This document shows, one piece after another, positions 1 to 12,443 of a stretch of DNA of 23,190 nt; position 1 is the first letter of the stretch; each line of letters starts with the position of its first letter. Below the pieces are notes generated by a model. The model was not told the origin of the DNA, searched no databases, and saw only the letters and a program-made list of their open reading frames with translations. Location of the stretch: the NCBI RefSeq assembly GCF_003334815.1, contig NZ_QOWO01000050.1; one strand, 5' to 3'. Origin of the DNA: Escherichia coli (lineage in GTDB: Bacteria; Pseudomonadota; Gammaproteobacteria; Enterobacterales; Enterobacteriaceae). Made by a program: the position numbers and the translations under genes.

Positions 1-1
1 G

Positions 2-898
2 TGGCTTGCGCAGTGCGGGCTGACGGTGGAGCAACTGGCCAGACAGGTGGAGCCGGAATACACACCGGCGCGAAAAGCTCATCTTTATCACTGCGACCAC
101 CGGGGACTGCCGCTGGCGCTTATCAGCGAAGACGGCAATACGGCGTGGAGCGCGGAATATGATGAATGGGGCAACCAGCTTAATGAGGAGAACCCGCATC
201 ATGTGTATCAGCCGTACCGTCTGCCAGGGCAGCAGCATGATGAGGAATCAGGGCTGTACTATAACCGTCACCGGTACTACGATCCGTTGCAGGGGCGGTA
301 TATTACTCAGGACCCGATGGGGTTGAAAGGGGGATGGAATTTATATCAGTATCCTTTAAATCCACTACAACAAATTGACCCTATGGGATTATTGCAGACT
401 TGGGATGATGCCAGATCTGGAGCATGTACGGGGGGAGTTTGTGGTGTTCTTTCACGTATAATAGGACCAAGTAAATTTGATAGTACTGCAGATGCTGCGT
501 TAGATGCTTTGAAAGAAACGCAGAATAGATCTCTATGTAATGATATGGAATACTCTGGTATTGTCTGTAAAGATACTAATGGAAAATATTTTGCATCTAA
601 GGCAGAAACTGATAATTTAAGAAAGGAGTCATATCCTCTGAAAAGAAAATGTCCCACAGGTACAGATAGAGTTGCTGCTTATCATACTCACGGTGCAGAT
701 AGTCATGGCGATTATGTTGATGAATTTTTTTCAAGTAGCGATAAAAATCTTGTAAGAAGTAAAGATAATAATCTTGAAGCATTTTATCTCGCAACACCTG
801 ATGGACGATTTGAGGCGCTTAATAATAAAGGAGAATATATTTTTATCAGAAATAGTGTCCCGGGATTGAGTTCAGTATGCATACCGTATCATGATTAA
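2..898 (+). CDS. rhsD: Rhs-family polymorphic toxin, C-terminal ~299 codons (5'-partial; gene begins upstream of window). Conserved Rhs core end followed by a variable AT-rich C-terminal toxin domain
   Basis: Frame is open from position 2 with no stop before the track ORF at 26. Translation contains the Rhs core-terminal signature YDxxGR...[13 protein letters not shown] (PxxxxDPxGL) at about 300-390. Base composition drops sharply to AT-rich immediately after that motif, as expected for a swapped toxin tip. Gene symbol is from recalled context (rhsD-ybbC-ylbH-ybbD next to mnmH/allS). Confidence 0.85.
113..392 (+). repeat. Rhs core-terminal homology block, copy 1 (direct repeat with 1309-1588)
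   Basis: Nucleotide and protein similarity to 1309-1588 visible by eye, including a 33-nt identical block ccggtactacgatccgttgcaggggcggtatat at 271-303 and 1467-1499. Both copies end at the DPxGL motif. Confidence 0.8.
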
Positions 899-937
899 TT
901 TTAGTGCTTTTATTAGTGGGGCCTATAAGGAGATTCA

Positions 938-1306
938 ATGAAATATAGTTCAATATTTTCGATGCTTTCATTTTTTATACTATTTGCCTGTAATGAGACA
1001 GCTGTTTACGGTTCTGATGAAAACATTATTTTTATGAGGTATGTGGAAAAATTACATTTAGATAAATACTCTGTTAAAAATACGGTAAAAACTGAAACAA
1101 TGGCGATACAATTAGCTGAAATATATGTTAGGTATCGCTATGGCGAACGGATTGCAGAAGAAGAAAAACCATATTTAATTACGGAACTACCAGATAGTTG
1201 GGTTGTTGAGGGAGCAAAGTTACCTTATGAAGTTGCGGGTGGTGTATTTATTATAGAAATTAATAAGAAAAATGGATGTGTTTTGAATTTCCTACATAGT
1301 AAATAA
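938..1306 (+). CDS. ybbC: Small protein directly downstream of the Rhs toxin tip; putative cognate Rhs immunity protein with a hydrophobic N-terminus (possible signal peptide or lipoprotein)
   Basis: 122-aa ORF starting 40 nt after the rhs stop, AT-rich like the toxin tip. N-terminus [18 protein letters not shown] is signal-peptide-like with a Cys after the hydrophobic stretch. Position immediately 3' of an Rhs C-terminal tip is the canonical immunity-gene location. Confidence 0.75.
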
Positions 1307-2016
1307 TGCTGGCGCTGATGGATGCGGATGGAAACATTGCGTGGAGCGGGGAGTATGATGAGTGGGGCAACCAGCTGAATGAAGAGAACCCGCATCACCT
1401 GCACCAGCCGTACCGGCTGCCGGGGCAGCAGTATGATAAGGAGTCGGGGCTGTACTACAACCGGAACCGGTACTACGATCCGTTGCAGGGGCGGTATATC
1501 ACTCAGGACCCGATAGGGCTGGAGGGGGGATGGAGTCTGTATGCGTATCCGCTGAATCCGGTGAATGGTATTGATCCATTAGGGTTAAGTCCCGCAGATG
1601 TAGCGCTAATAAGAAGAAAAGATCAACTAAACCATCAAAGAGCATGGGATATATTATCTGATACTTATGAAGATATGAAGAGATTAAATTTAGGTGGGAC
1701 TGATCAATTTTTCCATTGTATGGCATTTTGTCGAGTGTCTAAATTAAATGACGCTGGTGTTAGCCGATCGGCGAAAGGGCTGGGTTATGAAAAAGAGATT
1801 AGAGATTACGGGTTAAATCTGTTCGGTATGTACGGCAGAAAAGTAAAGCTATCCCATTCTGAAATGATTGAAGATAATAAAAAAGACTTGGCTGTAAATG
1901 ACCATGGGTTGACATGTCCATCAACAACAGATTGCTCAGATAGATGTAGTGATTATATTAATCCAGAGCATAAAAAAACGATAAAGGCTTTACAAGATGC
2001 TGGCTATCTCAAGTAA
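1306..2016 (+). CDS. ylbH: Orphan Rhs C-terminal module: ~95 residues of Rhs core end (through DPLGL) fused to a different, AT-rich C-terminal toxin domain of unknown activity
   Basis: 236-aa ORF whose ATG overlaps the ybbC stop (TAATG). N-terminal third is homologous to the end of the upstream rhs core; the sequence after DPLGL (about 1590) is unrelated to the RhsD tip and AT-rich. No upstream Rhs repeat region is in frame, so it is a displaced tip rather than a full rhs gene. Confidence 0.8.
1309..1588 (+). repeat. Rhs core-terminal homology block, copy 2 (5' part of the orphan tip module)
   Basis: Same as copy 1. Encoded peptide [26 protein letters not shown]...[14 protein letters not shown] parallels [26 protein letters not shown]...[14 protein letters not shown] in the main rhs ORF. 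Confidence 0.8.
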
Positions 2017-2257
2017 TCTATCAAAGATGATAATATTTATTTTTGCTATTATAATCATTGTTGTTTTATGCGTAATTACTTATCTTTATTTATACAAAGA
2101 TGAATCTCTTGTAAGTAAACATTACATAAACTATATGGCAATACCAGAAAATGATGGAGTTTTTACATGGCTCCCAGATTTTTTTCCGCACGTAGCGGTG
2201 GATATATCAATATACACAAATGTAGAAGATGATTATTTTTTTCTTATTTTTCCCTAA
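1997..2257 (+). CDS. ybbD: Small predicted membrane protein downstream of the orphan Rhs tip; candidate immunity protein for the orphan toxin (start uncertain; an internal ATG at 2027 just after the ylbH stop is an alternative)
   Basis: 86-aa ORF, very AT-rich, with a strongly hydrophobic N-terminal segment [22 protein letters not shown]. Sits in the immunity-gene position relative to the orphan tip. Weak ribosome-binding sites for both candidate starts. Confidence 0.5.
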
Positions 2258-3000
2258 CAAATGATGATGGGGGTAGGTTTAAGAAAACATTGACAGTGAG
2301 GGCCAGGGAACAAGTGGCGAAAATCGTATCAAAGAATGATCCAGATACAAAAAAAGTGTGGTGTAAATATGGTAAGATACCAGGGCAAGGGGATGGTGTA
2401 AACCTTTTTTTGTTGGTGAAATTAATGTTACGCATTATTTTATAACAAATATTGGAGCTGGATTGCCTGATGCTTGTGCAGAGTAATTGCTTGAATTAAG
2501 AGTCTATCCCATATCGAAGTCGTCAACTTCGTAGTGAGGAAAAGTAAAATTCCTGACTGAGAAAAGACATGTCGGCTATTGTGTAAAGCCATATAGCTCA
2601 GACGATGAATATCTACTCGTATTCAGTTGTTTATTGAGGGTGAGTTCCGACCCTGAAACAACAAATAAAATGAACAGTCAGAGAGTTTACATAGAATTGC
2701 ACTGGTCTTTTACGATATCTGACATTGTGTAATACATATTCAGCCATGCATTAATTAAAATGTTACGTGTTTAATGTGAGTCCCTATCTGAAAATAAATA
2801 ATCCTTCCGGATTAAAATAAATTCTTGCCGGGAAAGAAAGAGGAAATAAACCATTAGCGGAAAACCAGCGGCACGCCAGGGTGACATGCCCCAGTACGGC
2901 GGCCCGATAGTCCAGGGTTCAGCGGGGGTACTGATAGTCGCGCCGACTGCATCGAGAACTCCATACAACTTTTTACGGAACGTCACCTGATAAAATTTGT

Positions 3001-3372
3001 TCAGTATCGTCTTTTGAGATTCTCAAGGTTATGGAGTAACCAGACAGAACGGACACCACTGTCGGAGATAAAAACCCCCTGTTTACGCAGCTCGTTGCTG
3101 GCCCGGTGCTGACCATGTGTCGGGAAAGCGACGGCGTAATCAACAACAGCCTGTTCAGTTGCCTCATCGGTACGGTTCTTAAGGTTAGGAGCGCGGCGAC
3201 TACGATTAATCTGCGCATCCACACCGCCTTCAGCGACCAGTTCGCGGTAACGATAAAACGTATCACGCGAAACGCCCATGATTTTACAGGCTTTTGATAC
3301 GTAGCTGAGTTCTTCAGCCAGATTGAGCAAACCGGCTTTGTGTTTGATGACGGGATTGGCAGTATGAAGCAT
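3001..3372 (-). pseudogene. ylbG: Truncated IS481-like transposase N-terminal (HTH) fragment; no integrase/DDE domain follows
   Basis: Minus-strand ORF with ATG at 3370-3372 preceded by AAGAGGTAA (the track's GTG at 3408 lies upstream of this). Translation MGVSRDTFYRYRELVAEGG...NRSRRAPNLKNRTDEATEQAVVDYAVAFPTHGQHRASNELRKQGVFISDSGVRSVW resembles the N-terminal HTH region of IS481/IS3-like transposases. The ORF stops after ~123 aa and downstream sequence is AT-rich without a recognisable catalytic domain. Confidence 0.55.
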
Positions 3373-3487
3373 GAGAGTTACCTCTTGTTTTGGATAAGGA
3401 TTCGACACTCATATCAAAACCGGTAACTCTCAACCTTTCAAGGCCATGTGTCAGATCAAGTCGCGACTAATACAAATACGTCCCTCA

Positions 3488-4650: not shown

Positions 4651-5577
4651 TTAACTGCGTGGGTTGCCGAAAATTTCTAAAAATCCGCTGATTTCCGGCC
4701 TGCGCTGGGTAAACAAGGTCACAATATCTTCTACCGCTTTGCCGCTGCCAAATTTGCGCCATGCCAGACTCAATGGCGAAGGAGGGCGCATCGTTGGGAT
4801 TACCCGGCTGACCAGTTGTTGATTATCGATCATTGACTGGCAAAGCGATTTTGGCAAAAAACCAATGCCAACGCCCGCCAGATGGGCGGCGATTTTCGTT
4901 TCCATATCGGGAACAATAATCTCTTTTTGCCCTGGCAATCGCCAGGCGACGCGTTTGGTTAAGGTGCGGGCGCTGTCTTCAATATTGACCGCCGGAAAGC
5001 GCCGCAACTGCGCTTCTGTTAGCGGCTCTTCAACGTTCGCCAGCGGATGATCCGCCGCCATGACAAAGCGCCATTGCACCGATCCTAAGGGATCAAGACT
5101 AAAGGTATTTGCCAGCGCCTCAGTTCCCGTGACGCCGATAGCCAGCGAAAAACCTTCGTACAATAGCGAGTCCCAGACGCCCATATAGATTTGTCGGGAG
5201 ATGTGAAACTGGGTAAAGGGGTAACGCTCATTCAGCCACGCCAGCAACTGGGCGACGGCCTGGGGGTTGTAGAGCAGGTTGTTGATGACAATATTCACCT
5301 GGCGTTCCACGCCATCATTCACCTGTTGCAGCTCGCTTGGCATACTTTCCAGCCAGCTCAGCCAGTCTCTGGCCTGGGAAAGTAGATGCTCGCCAGCCGC
5401 TGTCAACGTCACGCTGCGAGTCGTACGGAAAAACAGCGCTACTCCGGTATTCTCTTCCAGAAGTTTAATGCGATAACTGATCGTCGCCGTGGTTTTACAT
5501 AATCGTTCTGCCGCTTTTGAAAAACTTCCTGTTTCAGCAACCGCAATGAAAGTCCGCAAGGTTTCTGGATCGAACAT
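4651..5577 (-). CDS. allS: LysR-type transcriptional activator of the allantoin catabolic operon
   Basis: 308-aa ORF with a LysR N-terminal HTH ([36 protein letters not shown]). Divergent from allA, as in the allantoin regulon. Confidence 0.9.
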
Positions 5578-5684
5578 CTTCAGGTATCCCCTTTTAAATC
5601 CGCAAGTTGCGTGATTTTCTTATCCTCTGATTTATCAGTATTTTTACATGATAACCCTGTTCAATTTGTGGACTAAATCTAGTT

Positions 5685-5701
5685 TTGGAAAAATATTCCA
5701 A
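5685..5701. promoter_or_regulatory. Candidate AllR operator in the allS-allA divergent region (TTGGAAAAATATTCCAA)
   Basis: 17-mer inverted repeat centred in the 229-bp divergent intergenic region. It differs at a single position from a second 17-mer at 7235-7251 upstream of gcl. A TTGGAA-type dyad is consistent with what I recall of AllR (IclR family) sites. Confidence 0.6.
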
Positions 5702-5806
5702 CTTTTGTATTGATGTTGTTCTCTTAAGGTTTTAGATTGCCTGTTATTGAAACCAAGCTGACCGGTCGGCGGTGGTTGAACGGAATTATGTTACAAGGAC
5801 AAAAAG

Positions 5807-6289
5807 ATGAAACTTCAGGTATTACCGTTAAGTCAGGAAGCCTTTAGTGCTTATGGCGACGTAATCGAAACGCAGCAACGGGATTTTTTCCATATTAACA
5901 ATGGCCTGGTGGAGCGTTACCACGATTTGGCGCTGGTTGAGATTCTTGAGCAAGACCGTACGCTTATCAGCATTAACCGCGCGCAACCGGCGAATCTGCC
6001 GCTGACCATTCACGAACTCGAACGTCATCCGCTGGGTACTCAGGCCTTTATCCCGATGAAAGGTGAGGTGTTTGTGGTGGTCGTGGCGTTAGGTGACGAC
6101 AAACCAGACCTGTCAACGCTGCGGGCGTTTATCACCAACGGCGAACAGGGAGTGAATTACCATCGTAACGTCTGGCATCACCCACTTTTCGCCTGGCAGC
6201 GCGTCACCGATTTTCTGACCATCGATCGCGGCGGCAGTGACAACTGTGATGTTGAAAGTATTCCTGAACAGGAACTCTGTTTTGCGTGA
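5807..6289 (+). CDS. allA: Ureidoglycolate lyase (ureidoglycolate hydrolase family)
   Basis: 160-aa ORF; sequence and length match AllA; position between allS and allR. Confidence 0.9.
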
Positions 6290-6366
6290 CGCCTGCAACC
6301 GACTTGCATAAGATAAACTAATTGTTCATTGTTTATGCTCACTTGTAGGTCGGAGTTAACGTAGGT

Positions 6367-7182
6367 ATGACGGAAGTTAGACGGCGCGGCAGGCCAGGAC
6401 AGGCGGAGCCTGTGGCACAGAAGGGCGCACAGGCGTTAGAGCGGGGAATTGCGATTCTGCAATATTTGGAAAAAAGTGGGGGAAGTTCGTCGGTTAGCGA
6501 TATTTCTCTCAATCTGGATTTGCCGCTCTCCACGACCTTTCGCTTGCTGAAGGTTTTACAGGCAGCGGATTTTGTCTATCAGGACAGTCAATTAGGCTGG
6601 TGGCATATAGGATTAGGTGTCTTTAACGTCGGTGCGGCGTACATCCATAACCGCGATGTCCTCTCCGTCGCCGGGCCGTTTATGCGCCGCCTGATGTTAC
6701 TTTCCGGCGAAACGGTCAATGTCGCGATCCGTAACGGCAATGAAGCGGTATTAATTGGTCAGTTAGAGTGTAAATCGATGGTCAGGATGTGTGCGCCACT
6801 GGGCAGTCGTCTGCCACTGCATGCTTCCGGTGCGGGCAAAGCGCTGCTTTATCCGCTGGCGGAAGAGGAGTTGATGAGCATCATTCTGCAAACCGGTTTG
6901 CAGCAGTTTACGCCAACTACGCTTGTGGATATGCCCACCTTGCTGAAGGACCTGGAACAAGCGCGTGAACTGGGCTATACCGTAGATAAAGAAGAGCATG
7001 TTGTAGGTCTGAATTGCATAGCTTCAGCAATTTACGATGATGTCGGTAGTGTTGTTGCCGCTATCTCCATCTCCGGGCCTTCATCAAGACTGACAGAAGA
7101 TCGTTTTGTCAGTCAGGGTGAGCTGGTCAGAGACACCGCCCGCGATATCAGCACGGCGTTGGGACTGAAAGCACATCCATAA
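6367..7182 (+). CDS. allR: IclR-family transcriptional repressor of the allantoin/glyoxylate regulon
   Basis: 271-aa ORF with an N-terminal HTH and C-terminal IclR effector domain; matches AllR length and context. Confidence 0.9.
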
Positions 7183-7194
7183 TGTCTGTCGCAT

Positions 7195-7219
7195 CCCGCT
7201 CTGCGGAGCGGGTTTTTTT
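7195..7219 (+). terminator. Rho-independent terminator downstream of allR
   Basis: GC-rich hairpin CCCGCTC-TGCG-GAGCGGG followed by a run of seven T, starting 13 nt after the allR stop. Confidence 0.7.
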
Positions 7220-7234
7220 GACAAAATTTGAAAG

Positions 7235-7251
7235 TTGGAAAAATTTTCCAA
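7235..7251. promoter_or_regulatory. Candidate AllR operator in the gcl promoter (perfect palindrome TTGGAAAA-A-TTTTCCAA)
   Basis: Perfect 8-1-8 palindrome 21 nt upstream of the gcl ATG, near-identical to the 17-mer at 5685-5701. A possible -35 hexamer TTGACA lies at 7218-7223. Confidence 0.6.
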
Positions 7252-7271
7252 TAAATAGAGGTAGGAATAAA

Positions 7272-9053
7272 ATGGCAAAAATGAGAGCCGTTGACGCGGC
7301 AATGTATGTGCTGGAGAAAGAAGGTATCACTACCGCCTTCGGTGTTCCGGGAGCTGCAATCAATCCGTTCTACTCAGCGATGCGTAAGCACGGCGGTATT
7401 CGTCACATTCTGGCGCGTCATGTGGAAGGTGCTTCGCACATGGCGGAAGGTTATACCCGCGCAACGGCAGGGAATATCGGCGTATGTCTGGGGACTTCCG
7501 GTCCTGCGGGCACGGACATGATCACCGCGCTCTATTCCGCTTCTGCTGATTCCATTCCTATTCTGTGCATTACCGGCCAGGCACCGCGCGCCCGTCTGCA
7601 TAAAGAAGATTTTCAGGCCGTAGATATTGAAGCAATTGCTAAACCGGTCAGCAAAATGGCGGTTACAGTTCGTGAAGCGGCGCTGGTGCCTCGCGTGCTG
7701 CAACAGGCATTTCACCTGATGCGTTCTGGTCGTCCGGGTCCGGTACTGGTGGATTTACCGTTCGACGTTCAGGTTGCGGAAATCGAGTTTGATCCTGACA
7801 TGTACGAACCGCTGCCGGTCTACAAACCTGCTGCCAGCCGTATGCAGATCGAAAAAGCTGTAGAAATGTTAATCCAGGCCGAACGTCCGGTGATTGTTGC
7901 CGGGGGCGGGGTAATTAATGCTGACGCAGCTGCACTGTTACAACAGTTTGCTGAACTGACCAGCGTTCCGGTGATCCCAACGCTAATGGGCTGGGGCTGT
8001 ATCCCGGACGATCATGAACTGATGGCCGGGATGGTGGGTCTGCAAACCGCGCATCGTTACGGTAACGCAACGCTGCTGGCGTCTGACATGGTGTTTGGTA
8101 TCGGTAACCGTTTTGCTAACCGTCATACCGGCTCGGTAGAGAAATACACCGAAGGGCGCAAAATCGTTCATATTGATATTGAGCCGACGCAAATTGGTCG
8201 CGTGCTGTGTCCGGATCTCGGTATTGTCTCTGATGCTAAAGCGGCGCTGACACTGCTGGTTGAAGTGGCGCAGGAGATGCAAAAAGCGGGTCGTCTGCCG
8301 TGTCGTAAAGAATGGGTCGCCGACTGCCAGCAGCGTAAACGCACTTTGCTGCGCAAAACCCACTTCGACAACGTGCCGGTGAAACCGCAGCGCGTGTATG
8401 AAGAGATGAACAAAGCCTTTGGTCGCGATGTTTGTTATGTCACCACCATTGGTCTGTCACAAATCGCTGCGGCACAAATGCTGCATGTCTTTAAAGACCG
8501 CCACTGGATCAACTGTGGTCAGGCTGGTCCGTTAGGCTGGACGATTCCGGCTGCGCTAGGGGTTTGTGCCGCTGATCCGAAACGCAATGTGGTGGCGATT
8601 TCTGGCGACTTTGACTTCCAGTTCCTGATTGAAGAGTTAGCTGTTGGCGCGCAGTTCAACATTCCGTACATCCATGTGCTGGTCAACAACGCTTATCTGG
8701 GGCTGATTCGTCAGTCACAACGCGCTTTTGACATGGACTACTGCGTGCAACTCGCTTTCGAGAATATCAACTCCAGTGAAGTGAATGGCTACGGTGTTGA
8801 CCACGTAAAAGTAGCGGAAGGTTTAGGTTGTAAAGCTATTCGGGTCTTCAAACCGGAAGATATTGCGCCAGCCTTTGAACAGGCGAAAGCCTTAATGGCG
8901 CAATATCGGGTACCGGTAGTCGTGGAAGTTATTCTCGAGCGTGTGACCAATATTTCGATGGGCAGCGAACTGGATAACGTCATGGAATTTGAAGATATCG
9001 CCGATAACGCAGCGGACGCACCGACTGAAACCTGCTTCATGCACTATGAATAA
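7272..9053 (+). CDS. gcl: Glyoxylate carboligase (tartronate-semialdehyde synthase), thiamine-diphosphate dependent
   Basis: Track ORF 7182-9053 begins at an upstream alternative start inside the terminator; the real start is ATG at 7272 ([19 protein letters not shown]...) preceded by AGAGGTAGGAAT, giving 593 aa. Confidence 0.92.
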
Positions 9054-10988: not shown

Positions 10989-12443
10989 ATGGAACATCAG
11001 AGAAAACTATTCCAGCAACGCGGCTATAGCGAAGATCTATTGCCGAAAACGCAAAGCCAGCGGACCTGGAAAACATTTAACTATTTTACCTTATGGATGG
11101 GTTCGGTTCATAACGTTCCCAATTATGTGATGGTCGGCGGCTTTTTTATTCTCGGCTTGTCTACCTTTAGTATTATGCTGGCAATTATCCTCAGCGCCTT
11201 TTTCATTGCCGCGGTAATGGTATTAAACGGTGCTGCGGGCAGTAAATACGGTGTGCCTTTTGCCATGATCCTGCGTGCTTCTTACGGTGTACGTGGTGCA
11301 CTGTTTCCCGGATTATTAAGGGGCGGAATTGCCGCCATCATGTGGTTTGGTTTGCAATGTTACGCGGGGTCACTGGCCTGCTTGATTCTGATTGGCAAAA
11401 TCTGGCCGGGATTTTTAACTCTCGGTGGTGATTTCACTCTGTTAGGCCTTTCTCTACCGGGCTTAATTACTTTCTTAATCTTCTGGCTGGTCAACGTTGG
11501 TATAGGTTTTGGCGGTGGCAAAGTTTTAAATAAATTCACTGCCATTCTTAACCCGTGCATCTATATCGTTTTCGGCGGTATGGCGATTTGGGCGATTTCA
11601 CTGGTCGGGATCGGTCCAATCTTTGACTACATTCCGAGCGGTATTCAGAAAGCAGAAAACGGTGGCTTCCTGTTCCTGGTGGTGATTAACGCGGTAGTTG
11701 CGGTCTGGGCGGCACCGGCGGTGAGCGCATCCGACTTTACGCAAAACGCCCACTCGTTTCGTGAGCAGGCGCTGGGGCAAACGCTGGGTTTAGTTGTGGC
11801 CTATATTCTGTTTGCGGTCGCCGGGGTATGTATTATTGCCGGAGCCAGTATTCACTACGGCGCTGATACCTGGAACGTGCTGGATATTGTTCAGCGTTGG
11901 GACAGCCTGTTCGCCTCGTTCTTTGCGGTACTGGTTATTCTGATGACAACTATCTCCACTAACGCGACCGGTAATATTATTCCAGCCGGTTATCAGATTG
12001 CCGCCATTGCACCGACAAAACTGACCTATAAAAACGGCGTACTGATTGCCAGTATTATCAGCTTGCTGATCTGCCCGTGGAAATTAATGGAAAATCAGGA
12101 CAGCATTTATCTTTTCCTCGATATTATCGGCGGAATGCTTGGTCCGGTAATTGGTGTCATGATGGCGCATTATTTTGTGGTGATGCGCGGACAAATTAAT
12201 CTTGATGAACTGTATACCGCACCTGGCGATTATAAATATTACGATAACGGTTTTAACCTCACTGCGTTTTCAGTAACTCTGGTGGCCGTTATTTTATCTC
12301 TTGGCGGTAAGTTTATTCACTTTATGGAACCGTTATCGCGTGTTTCATGGTTTGTCGGCGTCATCGTCGCCTTTGCGGCCTACGCCTTATTAAAGAAACG
12401 TACAACAGCAGAAAAAACAGGAGAGCAAAAAACCATAGGTTAA
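10989..12443 (+). CDS. ybbW: Allantoin permease, NCS1 family transporter
   Basis: 484-aa highly hydrophobic ORF with multiple predicted transmembrane segments; RBS AAGAGGG; matches YbbW/AllP in length and context. Confidence 0.88.
   Translation: MEHQRKLFQQRGYSEDLLPKTQSQRTWKTFNYFTLWMGSVHNVPNYVMVGGFFILGLSTFSIMLAIILSAFFIAAVMVLNGAAGSKYGVPFAMILRASYGVRGALFPGLLRGGIAAIMWFGLQCYAGSLACLILIGKIWPGFLTLGGDFTLLGLSLPGLITFLIFWLVNVGIGFGGGKVLNKFTAILNPCIYIVFGGMAIWAISLVGIGPIFDYIPSGIQKAENGGFLFLVVINAVVAVWAAPAVSASDFTQNAHSFREQALGQTLGLVVAYILFAVAGVCIIAGASIHYGADTWNVLDIVQRWDSLFASFFAVLVILMTTISTNATGNIIPAGYQIAAIAPTKLTYKNGVLIASIISLLICPWKLMENQDSIYLFLDIIGGMLGPVIGVMMAHYFVVMRGQINLDELYTAPGDYKYYDNGFNLTAFSVTLVAVILSLGGKFIHFMEPLSRVSWFVGVIVAFAAYALLKKRTTAEKTGEQKTIG

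Follow-up and report, generated by a model that had tools for sequence, protein, structure and literature searches.

Among described systems, the closest to the sequences considered here are the operators of AllR in Escherichia coli K-12. According to PMC12535856, which cites Rintoul 2002 and Hasegawa 2008, AllR binds the control region of allS-allA and the promoter of the gcl operon, with glyoxylate acting as the inducer and allantoin as the corepressor; the same article describes repression of allS by AllR and reports a ΔallR phenotype. Direct AllR binding that is released by glyoxylate is attributed to the same two studies, Rintoul 2002 and Hasegawa 2008, in PMC12535856, PMC13300388 and PMC6090065, and what we say about direct binding and effector responses is taken second-hand from this literature. 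Suvorova and Gelfand give the AllR motif as KTTGGAAWAWTWTTCCAAC (2021; PMC8222616, Table 1). A 2026 paper, PMC13300388, reproduces from Rintoul et al. 2002 (J Mol Biol 324:599) a 37-nt sequence under the name "AllR recognition site", and uses Pgcl as an AllR-repressed promoter in a lux biosensor. Genomic SELEX has reported further AllR targets, such as artP, in which no box was found (PMC6640053).

Two related types of site help to place these operators. The box of IclR at aceBAK and iclR, TGGAAATNATTTCCA, resembles the AllR box in being A/T-rich, in its TGGAA...TTCCA arms and single central base, and in serving a paralogous, glyoxylate-sensing regulator. IclR boxes span 15 bp with inner AT/AT, whereas AllR boxes span 17 bp with inner AA/TT and one more conserved pair at each end, and the target genes differ. 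Boxes of both types lie close to the start codon of the regulated gene, as illustrated by TGGAAATCATTTTCA, 24 nt upstream of the iclR ATG (positions 11653-11667 of the comparison locus that we label L123); iclR carries a box in its own promoter, whereas allR does not. Tetrameric regulators of the IclR family such as TtgV, which belong to the same protein family as AllR, use tandem dyads 18-22 bp apart (PMC8222616). The AllR sites differ from this arrangement in having a single dyad per promoter, and resemble it in that the 37-bp recognition site is larger than one dyad.

The window analysed here, a stretch of 23,190 nucleotides from E. coli contig NZ_QOWO01000050.1, carries the chromosomal allantoin cluster, as judged by annotation and gene identities, and its positions convert to MG1655 coordinates by adding 526,644 (U00096.3) or 525,868 (U00096.2). 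In the annotation, mnmH and allS occupy the minus strand at the left of the cluster and are followed on the plus strand by allA, allR, gcl, hyi, glxR, allW, allB, ybbY and glxK; to the right of glxK lie allE, allC and allD on the minus strand and then fdrA on the plus strand. Protein family models agree with the annotation for each gene central to this work. The LysR-type activator gene allS (4651-5577, minus strand) scores 644 bits against the NCBIfam equivalog NF007501, the ureidoglycolate lyase gene allA (5807-6289, plus strand) 365 bits against the NCBIfam equivalog NF002948, and the glyoxylate carboligase gene gcl (7272-9053, plus strand), the first gene of its operon, 1283 bits against the equivalog TIGR01504. 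The product of allR (6367-7182, plus strand), an IclR-family repressor, scores 619 bits (cutoff 406) against the NCBIfam equivalog NF007548, "HTH-type transcriptional repressor AllR", in agreement with RefSeq, and its C-terminal domain matches PDB 1TF1 with E = 2e-110. The true start of gcl is the ATG at 7272 (593 aa), and the longer reading frame from 7182 is an artefact of mechanically taking the longest ORF.

Several E. coli chromosomes match the 2-kb stretch around the two sites at 100% identity, and 5405 of 5426 complete genomes of the species contain it. Two of the 5408 places that match window 5400-7400 in this collection lie on plasmids rather than chromosomes, and the region is absent from 21 complete E. 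coli genomes. At the left of the window, upstream of mnmH, positions 1-3400 hold Rhs-element remnants and pseudogenes unrelated to the dyads, whose counterparts are annotated in a matching strain as the end of rhsD, ybbC, an RHS core fragment and ylbG.

An earlier note, made from the sequence of this window, had pointed to two near-identical 17-bp palindromes, differing at one base, in the allS-allA and gcl promoter regions, and we find the letters and coordinates to be exact. The copy in the allS-allA intergenic region is TTGGAAAAATATTCCAA at 5685-5701 and that upstream of gcl is TTGGAAAAATTTTCCAA at 7235-7251, neither being assigned to a strand; they differ solely at position 11 (A at 5695, T at 7245). 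The gcl dyad has perfect 8-1-8 symmetry, and its allS-allA counterpart pairs at 7 of 8 positions, the A residues at positions 7 and 11 being unpaired. The dyad centre at 5693 lies next to the centre, 5692, of the 229-bp allS-allA intergenic region (5578-5806), bearing out the description of this copy as centred between the divergent genes. The stated distance of 21 nt to gcl is likewise correct, since the A of the ATG is the 21st nucleotide past the last dyad base, with 20 nt in between. Recurrence of such a sequence in two promoters of one regulon was taken in the note as strong evidence for a shared operator, and the recurrence is not a chance event: dinucleotide-preserving shuffles of the window yielded no match to the 17-mer motif in any of 100 trials, and base composition predicts 5e-6 matches per window and about 1e-3 per 4.64-Mb genome. 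With up to 3 mismatches allowed, the window contains no third copy of the 17-mer, and at the same tolerance no further AllR box is found in the allA-allR, glxR-allW, glxK-allE or allD-fdrA intergenic regions. Inspection by eye of 5660-5730 and 7210-7270 recognised no second tandem dyad at 18-22 bp from either centre.

The two sites conform to what has been published on AllR operators. tTTGGAAAAATATTCCAAc (5684-5702) agrees with the motif KTTGGAAWAWTWTTCCAAC at 19 of 19 positions, and gTTGGAAAAATTTTCCAAt (7234-7252) at 18 of 19, the last flanking base being T instead of C. Window 5675-5711, again with no strand assigned, is letter for letter the 37-mer that PMC13300388 takes from Rintoul et al. 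2002 as the AllR recognition site. The sites fit the published motif, lie in control regions that are known targets, accompany a gene for the cognate AllR, and keep their dyads at orthologous positions. We consider it almost certain that these 17-bp dyads are the two operators of AllR, an IclR-family protein that senses glyoxylate and allantoin and represses the allantoin regulon, and the proposal that the dyads form a shared operator for the regulator encoded between them is upheld by a literature that assigns both regions to AllR. Since both dyads match the published motif and the allS-allA copy lies within the quoted 37-mer, the present analysis is a rediscovery of an operator pair already known, experimentally characterised in 2002 and included in motif collections: the K-12 operators of Rintoul et al. 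2002 involve these very promoters, with an identical regulator in an identical organism, and nothing is different. What our analysis adds is limited to conservation across genera and within the species, and to the geometry relative to transcription start sites from an open-access dataset.

To follow the dyads beyond E. coli, the motif TTGGAAWAWTWTTCCAA was scanned over one genome per species, which gave at least 120 stretches with matches. Among the matches listed, loci with two copies are confined to allS-allA-allR-gcl clusters, namely those of Citrobacter werkmanii, Citrobacter sp. FP75, Citrobacter sp. R56 and a Providencia, and in these clusters of other genera the two copies are 1,548-1,647 bp apart, as compared with 1,550 bp in the E. 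coli window. Superficieibacter electus has a single copy in its allS-allA region, in a locus that is cut just after allR. Of the matches listed, the 115 that fall outside the allantoin clusters of enterobacteria are single copies, for the most part in A/T-rich DNA from metagenome bins (median G+C 0.385). Near those listed in unrelated genomes, no homologue of AllR or IclR was found even at E = 1e-3. Because they are single, mostly A/T-rich and unaccompanied by such a homologue, these matches look like chance.

Intergenic alignments of E. coli, the three Citrobacter, Providencia and, for allS-allA only, Superficieibacter set the dyads apart from their surroundings. Fifteen of the 17 columns of the allS-allA dyad are invariant in six species, compared with 20% over the remainder of that intergenic region, and 16 of the 17 columns of the gcl dyad are invariant in five species, as against 32% in the rest of the allR-gcl region; in both regions the dyad is the top-ranked conserved 17-column window. 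Variation across species is confined to the central base and position 11, and in the gcl dyad to the central base alone. Providencia also keeps the dyads, its AllR being 65% and its AllS 52% identical and its flanks barely alignable.

The same pattern is seen within E. coli. The allS-allA 37-mer occurs once per genome in 5404 of 5426 complete genomes. The gcl 37-mer was found in 5088, with a median of one place per genome, and its lower count is probably a matter of BLAST sensitivity to a short, A/T-rich query together with polymorphisms in the flanks. About half of these genomes (2,551 of 5,088) differ at 2 bases of the gcl 37-mer; in the strains sampled, one difference is an A to T change at the dyad's central base and the other lies in the flank, at 7253. 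In six divergent strains, three per site, the substituted positions are 5682, 5702, 5709, 7253 and 7243, the last being the central base, all of them common polymorphisms in E. coli, and a one-base deletion lies in the flank just after 5702; the 16 symmetric dyad positions are untouched in the strains sampled. Fixed arms around a freely varying centre are the signature of a dimer-binding site.

At gcl, the position of the operator can be related to published promoter boundaries. The 3′ ends of the biosensor primers given in PMC13300388 map to 7183-7201 (plus) and 7241-7264 (minus), and the 82 bp of 7183-7264 (plus strand) therefore hold a complete AllR-regulated promoter. The intrinsic terminator of allR occupies the left part of this fragment (7195-7219, plus strand), with a hairpin at 7195-7212 followed by a T-run (-14.8 kcal/mol, z = -3.7). 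Immediately beyond the terminator comes TTGACA (7218-7223), and the dyad lies next in line. With the fragment ending at 7264 and the terminator bounding the promoter on the left, promoter and operator are forced to overlap, and any sigma-70 promoter between the terminator and 7264 must overlap the gcl dyad. A position weight matrix (PWM) scan places a candidate core promoter at 7218-7247 on the plus strand, with TTGACA as the -35 element and an extended -10-like TGnAAAAAT (7236-7244) inside the dyad, and from this we infer a gcl start near 7251-7254 (about 533,895-533,898 in MG1655 v3). TGnAAAAAT is found in all 5 species, as expected of a part of the conserved dyad. The plus-strand starts listed from Cappable-seq, obtained under non-inducing conditions, include none for gcl. 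The suggestion in the earlier note that the gcl copy lies over the -10 region and the start, and would act by occlusion, is consistent with the sequence in respect of the 82-bp promoter, its terminator boundary and the predicted -10 element within the dyad; the start itself has the standing of a prediction.

The allR terminator is also the 3′ end of a small RNA. The MG1655 annotation has the sRNA AllZ (b4831) at window 6985-7219, comprising the 3′ part of allR and the terminator, so that AllZ ends (7219) 16 nt before the gcl AllR box. AllZ has been verified by northern blot and possibly has an independent promoter (PMC8175672).

The geometry at the divergent region is of another kind. A simple promoter scan was unproductive; the PWM scan yielded a clear promoter for allA, a plausible one for gcl and three competing candidates for allS. 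The allA promoter (5710-5746, plus strand) consists of a -35 element TTGATG (5710-5715), a 17-bp spacer, a -10 element TAGATT (5733-5738) and a start at 5746, where Cappable-seq places a start site (U00096.2 531,614, plus strand), exactly as the best-scoring, conserved promoter predicts. It is the best-scoring sigma-70 match in five of six species, at a fixed offset from the dyad, the predicted start lying at +50 to +52 from the dyad centre in all six. The distance from the dyad to allS varies, and the Providencia intergenic region is about 130 bp longer. Relative to the allA start, as placed by Cappable-seq, the dyad is centred at about -53 and spans -61 to -45, upstream of the -35 element; the 17-mer is clear of both core hexamers, and only the 37-nt recognition site enters the -35 element, by 2 nt. 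Since the dyad lies upstream of the -35 element, simple -10 occlusion does not fit allA, and repression by blocking -35 or upstream (alpha-CTD) contacts is more likely.

For allS, the candidates, with predicted starts near 5633, 5641 and 5685 respectively, are TGTAAAAAT at 5640-5648, in which the TG is conserved in five Enterobacteriaceae and the following base varies, Providencia having TATAAT at this position; TATCAT at 5648-5653; and TGGAATATT, embedded in the dyad at 5692-5700, which ranks top in four other species and is weak in E. coli. Operator and promoter may share bases at TGnAAAAAT (7236-7244) and at the last of these candidates (5692-5700, minus strand). To the left of the dyad, 5667-5682 holds a weak CRP-like site, TGTGG-N6-TCTAG, centred 18.5 bp from the dyad centre; its TGTG (5667-5670) is unchanged throughout the six species, Providencia among them. 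CRP control of allS has been described in Klebsiella pneumoniae (Xue et al. 2016, as listed in PMC11495319). The allR gene itself has three plus-strand start sites upstream, at 6321, 6339 and 6358, in the Cappable-seq data, within the allA-allR region 6290-6366. Even with 3 mismatches tolerated, this region contains no AllR box, and allR thus seems not to regulate itself through the AllR motif.

The only other reading with real support at the level of sequence is that the paralogue IclR, the repressor of the glyoxylate bypass, whose box is near-identical, is the main protein binding the dyads or an additional one. The IclR consensus TGGAAATNATTTCCA and the AllR core TGGAAAANTTTTCCA differ solely at the two innermost positions (PMC8222616), the gcl site agrees with TGGAAANNNTTTCCA throughout (15 of 15 positions), AllR and IclR are 42% identical with similar recognition helices (LPNSTTHRLL in IclR), and both sense glyoxylate (PMC5934670). 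We nevertheless regard binding by IclR as improbable. The arms match those of an IclR box, but the inner bases are AA/TT (or AA/TA) and not AT/AT, and the location is the allantoin cluster rather than aceBAK or iclR; the inner AA/TT and the additional terminal T and A are kept across genera, which points to an AllR-specific box. Furthermore, the sites co-occur with allR, and not with iclR, in every species sampled, and PMC12535856 reports the ΔallR phenotype within a literature that assigns them to AllR.

The symmetry of the conservation also bears on whether the 17-mer might have been retained as a promoter element, either an extended -10 or an UP-like A/T tract, instead of a repressor site. 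The extended -10-like TGnAAAAAT in the dyad, which provides the best gcl promoter candidate in several species, would suit such a role, as would the A/T-rich centre, which relative to the allA promoter falls in the zone typical of UP elements (about -45 to -61). Promoter elements, however, are not twofold symmetric, and in these dyads neither arm varies, the central base alone being A in some species and strains and T in others; because the conservation is symmetric, a reading as promoter element and nothing else fails. The same 17-mer also takes different positions relative to the gcl and allA promoters, and AllR binding is reported in PMC12535856 and PMC13300388. We hold this account to be very unlikely as a replacement for an operator, although at gcl the two roles are compatible and do not exclude each other. 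Least probable of all, to the point of being effectively refuted by fold energies and copy number, is that the palindromes are RNA or DNA hairpins acting as terminators or attenuators, or the ends of a repeated or mobile element. Each dyad can fold into a short stem-loop (-4.4 and -6.5 kcal/mol, with z scores of -1.2 and -2.5), but their stems are weak, A/U-rich and not followed by a T-run, and allR has its actual terminator elsewhere, in the G+C-rich hairpin at 7195-7212 (-14.8 kcal/mol), the sole hit of a terminator scan, so intrinsic-terminator identity was rejected. The end of a repeated or mobile element was rejected as well: each 37-mer occurs once per E. coli genome (median one place), the 23-kb window holds two copies of the 17-mer, and the matches listed outside enterobacterial allantoin clusters are single copies.

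Returning to the two dyads as AllR operators, we propose that AllR, encoded between its two sites and transcribed from its own operator-free promoter, would use its N-terminal winged-helix domains to bind each dyad, with every TTGGAA(A/T)A half-site occupied by one monomer. The single dyad in the divergent region may serve both allS and allA; at allA, its position just upstream of the -35 element, at about -53, would block the upstream part of the promoter and not the -10. At gcl, with the dyad between the -35 TTGACA and the start and containing the -10 region, bound AllR would exclude RNA polymerase and shut off gcl-hyi-glxR-allW-allB-ybbY-glxK. Glyoxylate would release AllR, allantoin would strengthen its binding, and derepressed AllS could then activate allDCE and the allF operon.

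One further arrangement deserves mention. Walker is said to have reported in 2006 that AllR acts as a tetramer, a dimer of dimers. As each promoter offers the protein a single dyad, one tetramer might bridge the allS-allA and gcl operators, 1,550 bp apart, in a loop enclosing allA and allR. We know of no published test of AllR looping between these operators, and we think it unlikely that they are joined in this way, since the 37-bp recognition site suggests a tetramer on one extended site instead. If a bridging loop were to form, repression of the three promoters would be coupled.

The small questions that remain concern divergent repression from about -53, the role of the second dimer of the tetramer, and cross-talk with IclR. 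The value of the locus is that of a positive control: a dyad recurring in two promoters that flank a regulator gene is a reliable signal, from sequence by itself, of a shared operator, and it also illustrates an operator in which the central base is free to vary and the arms are fixed.
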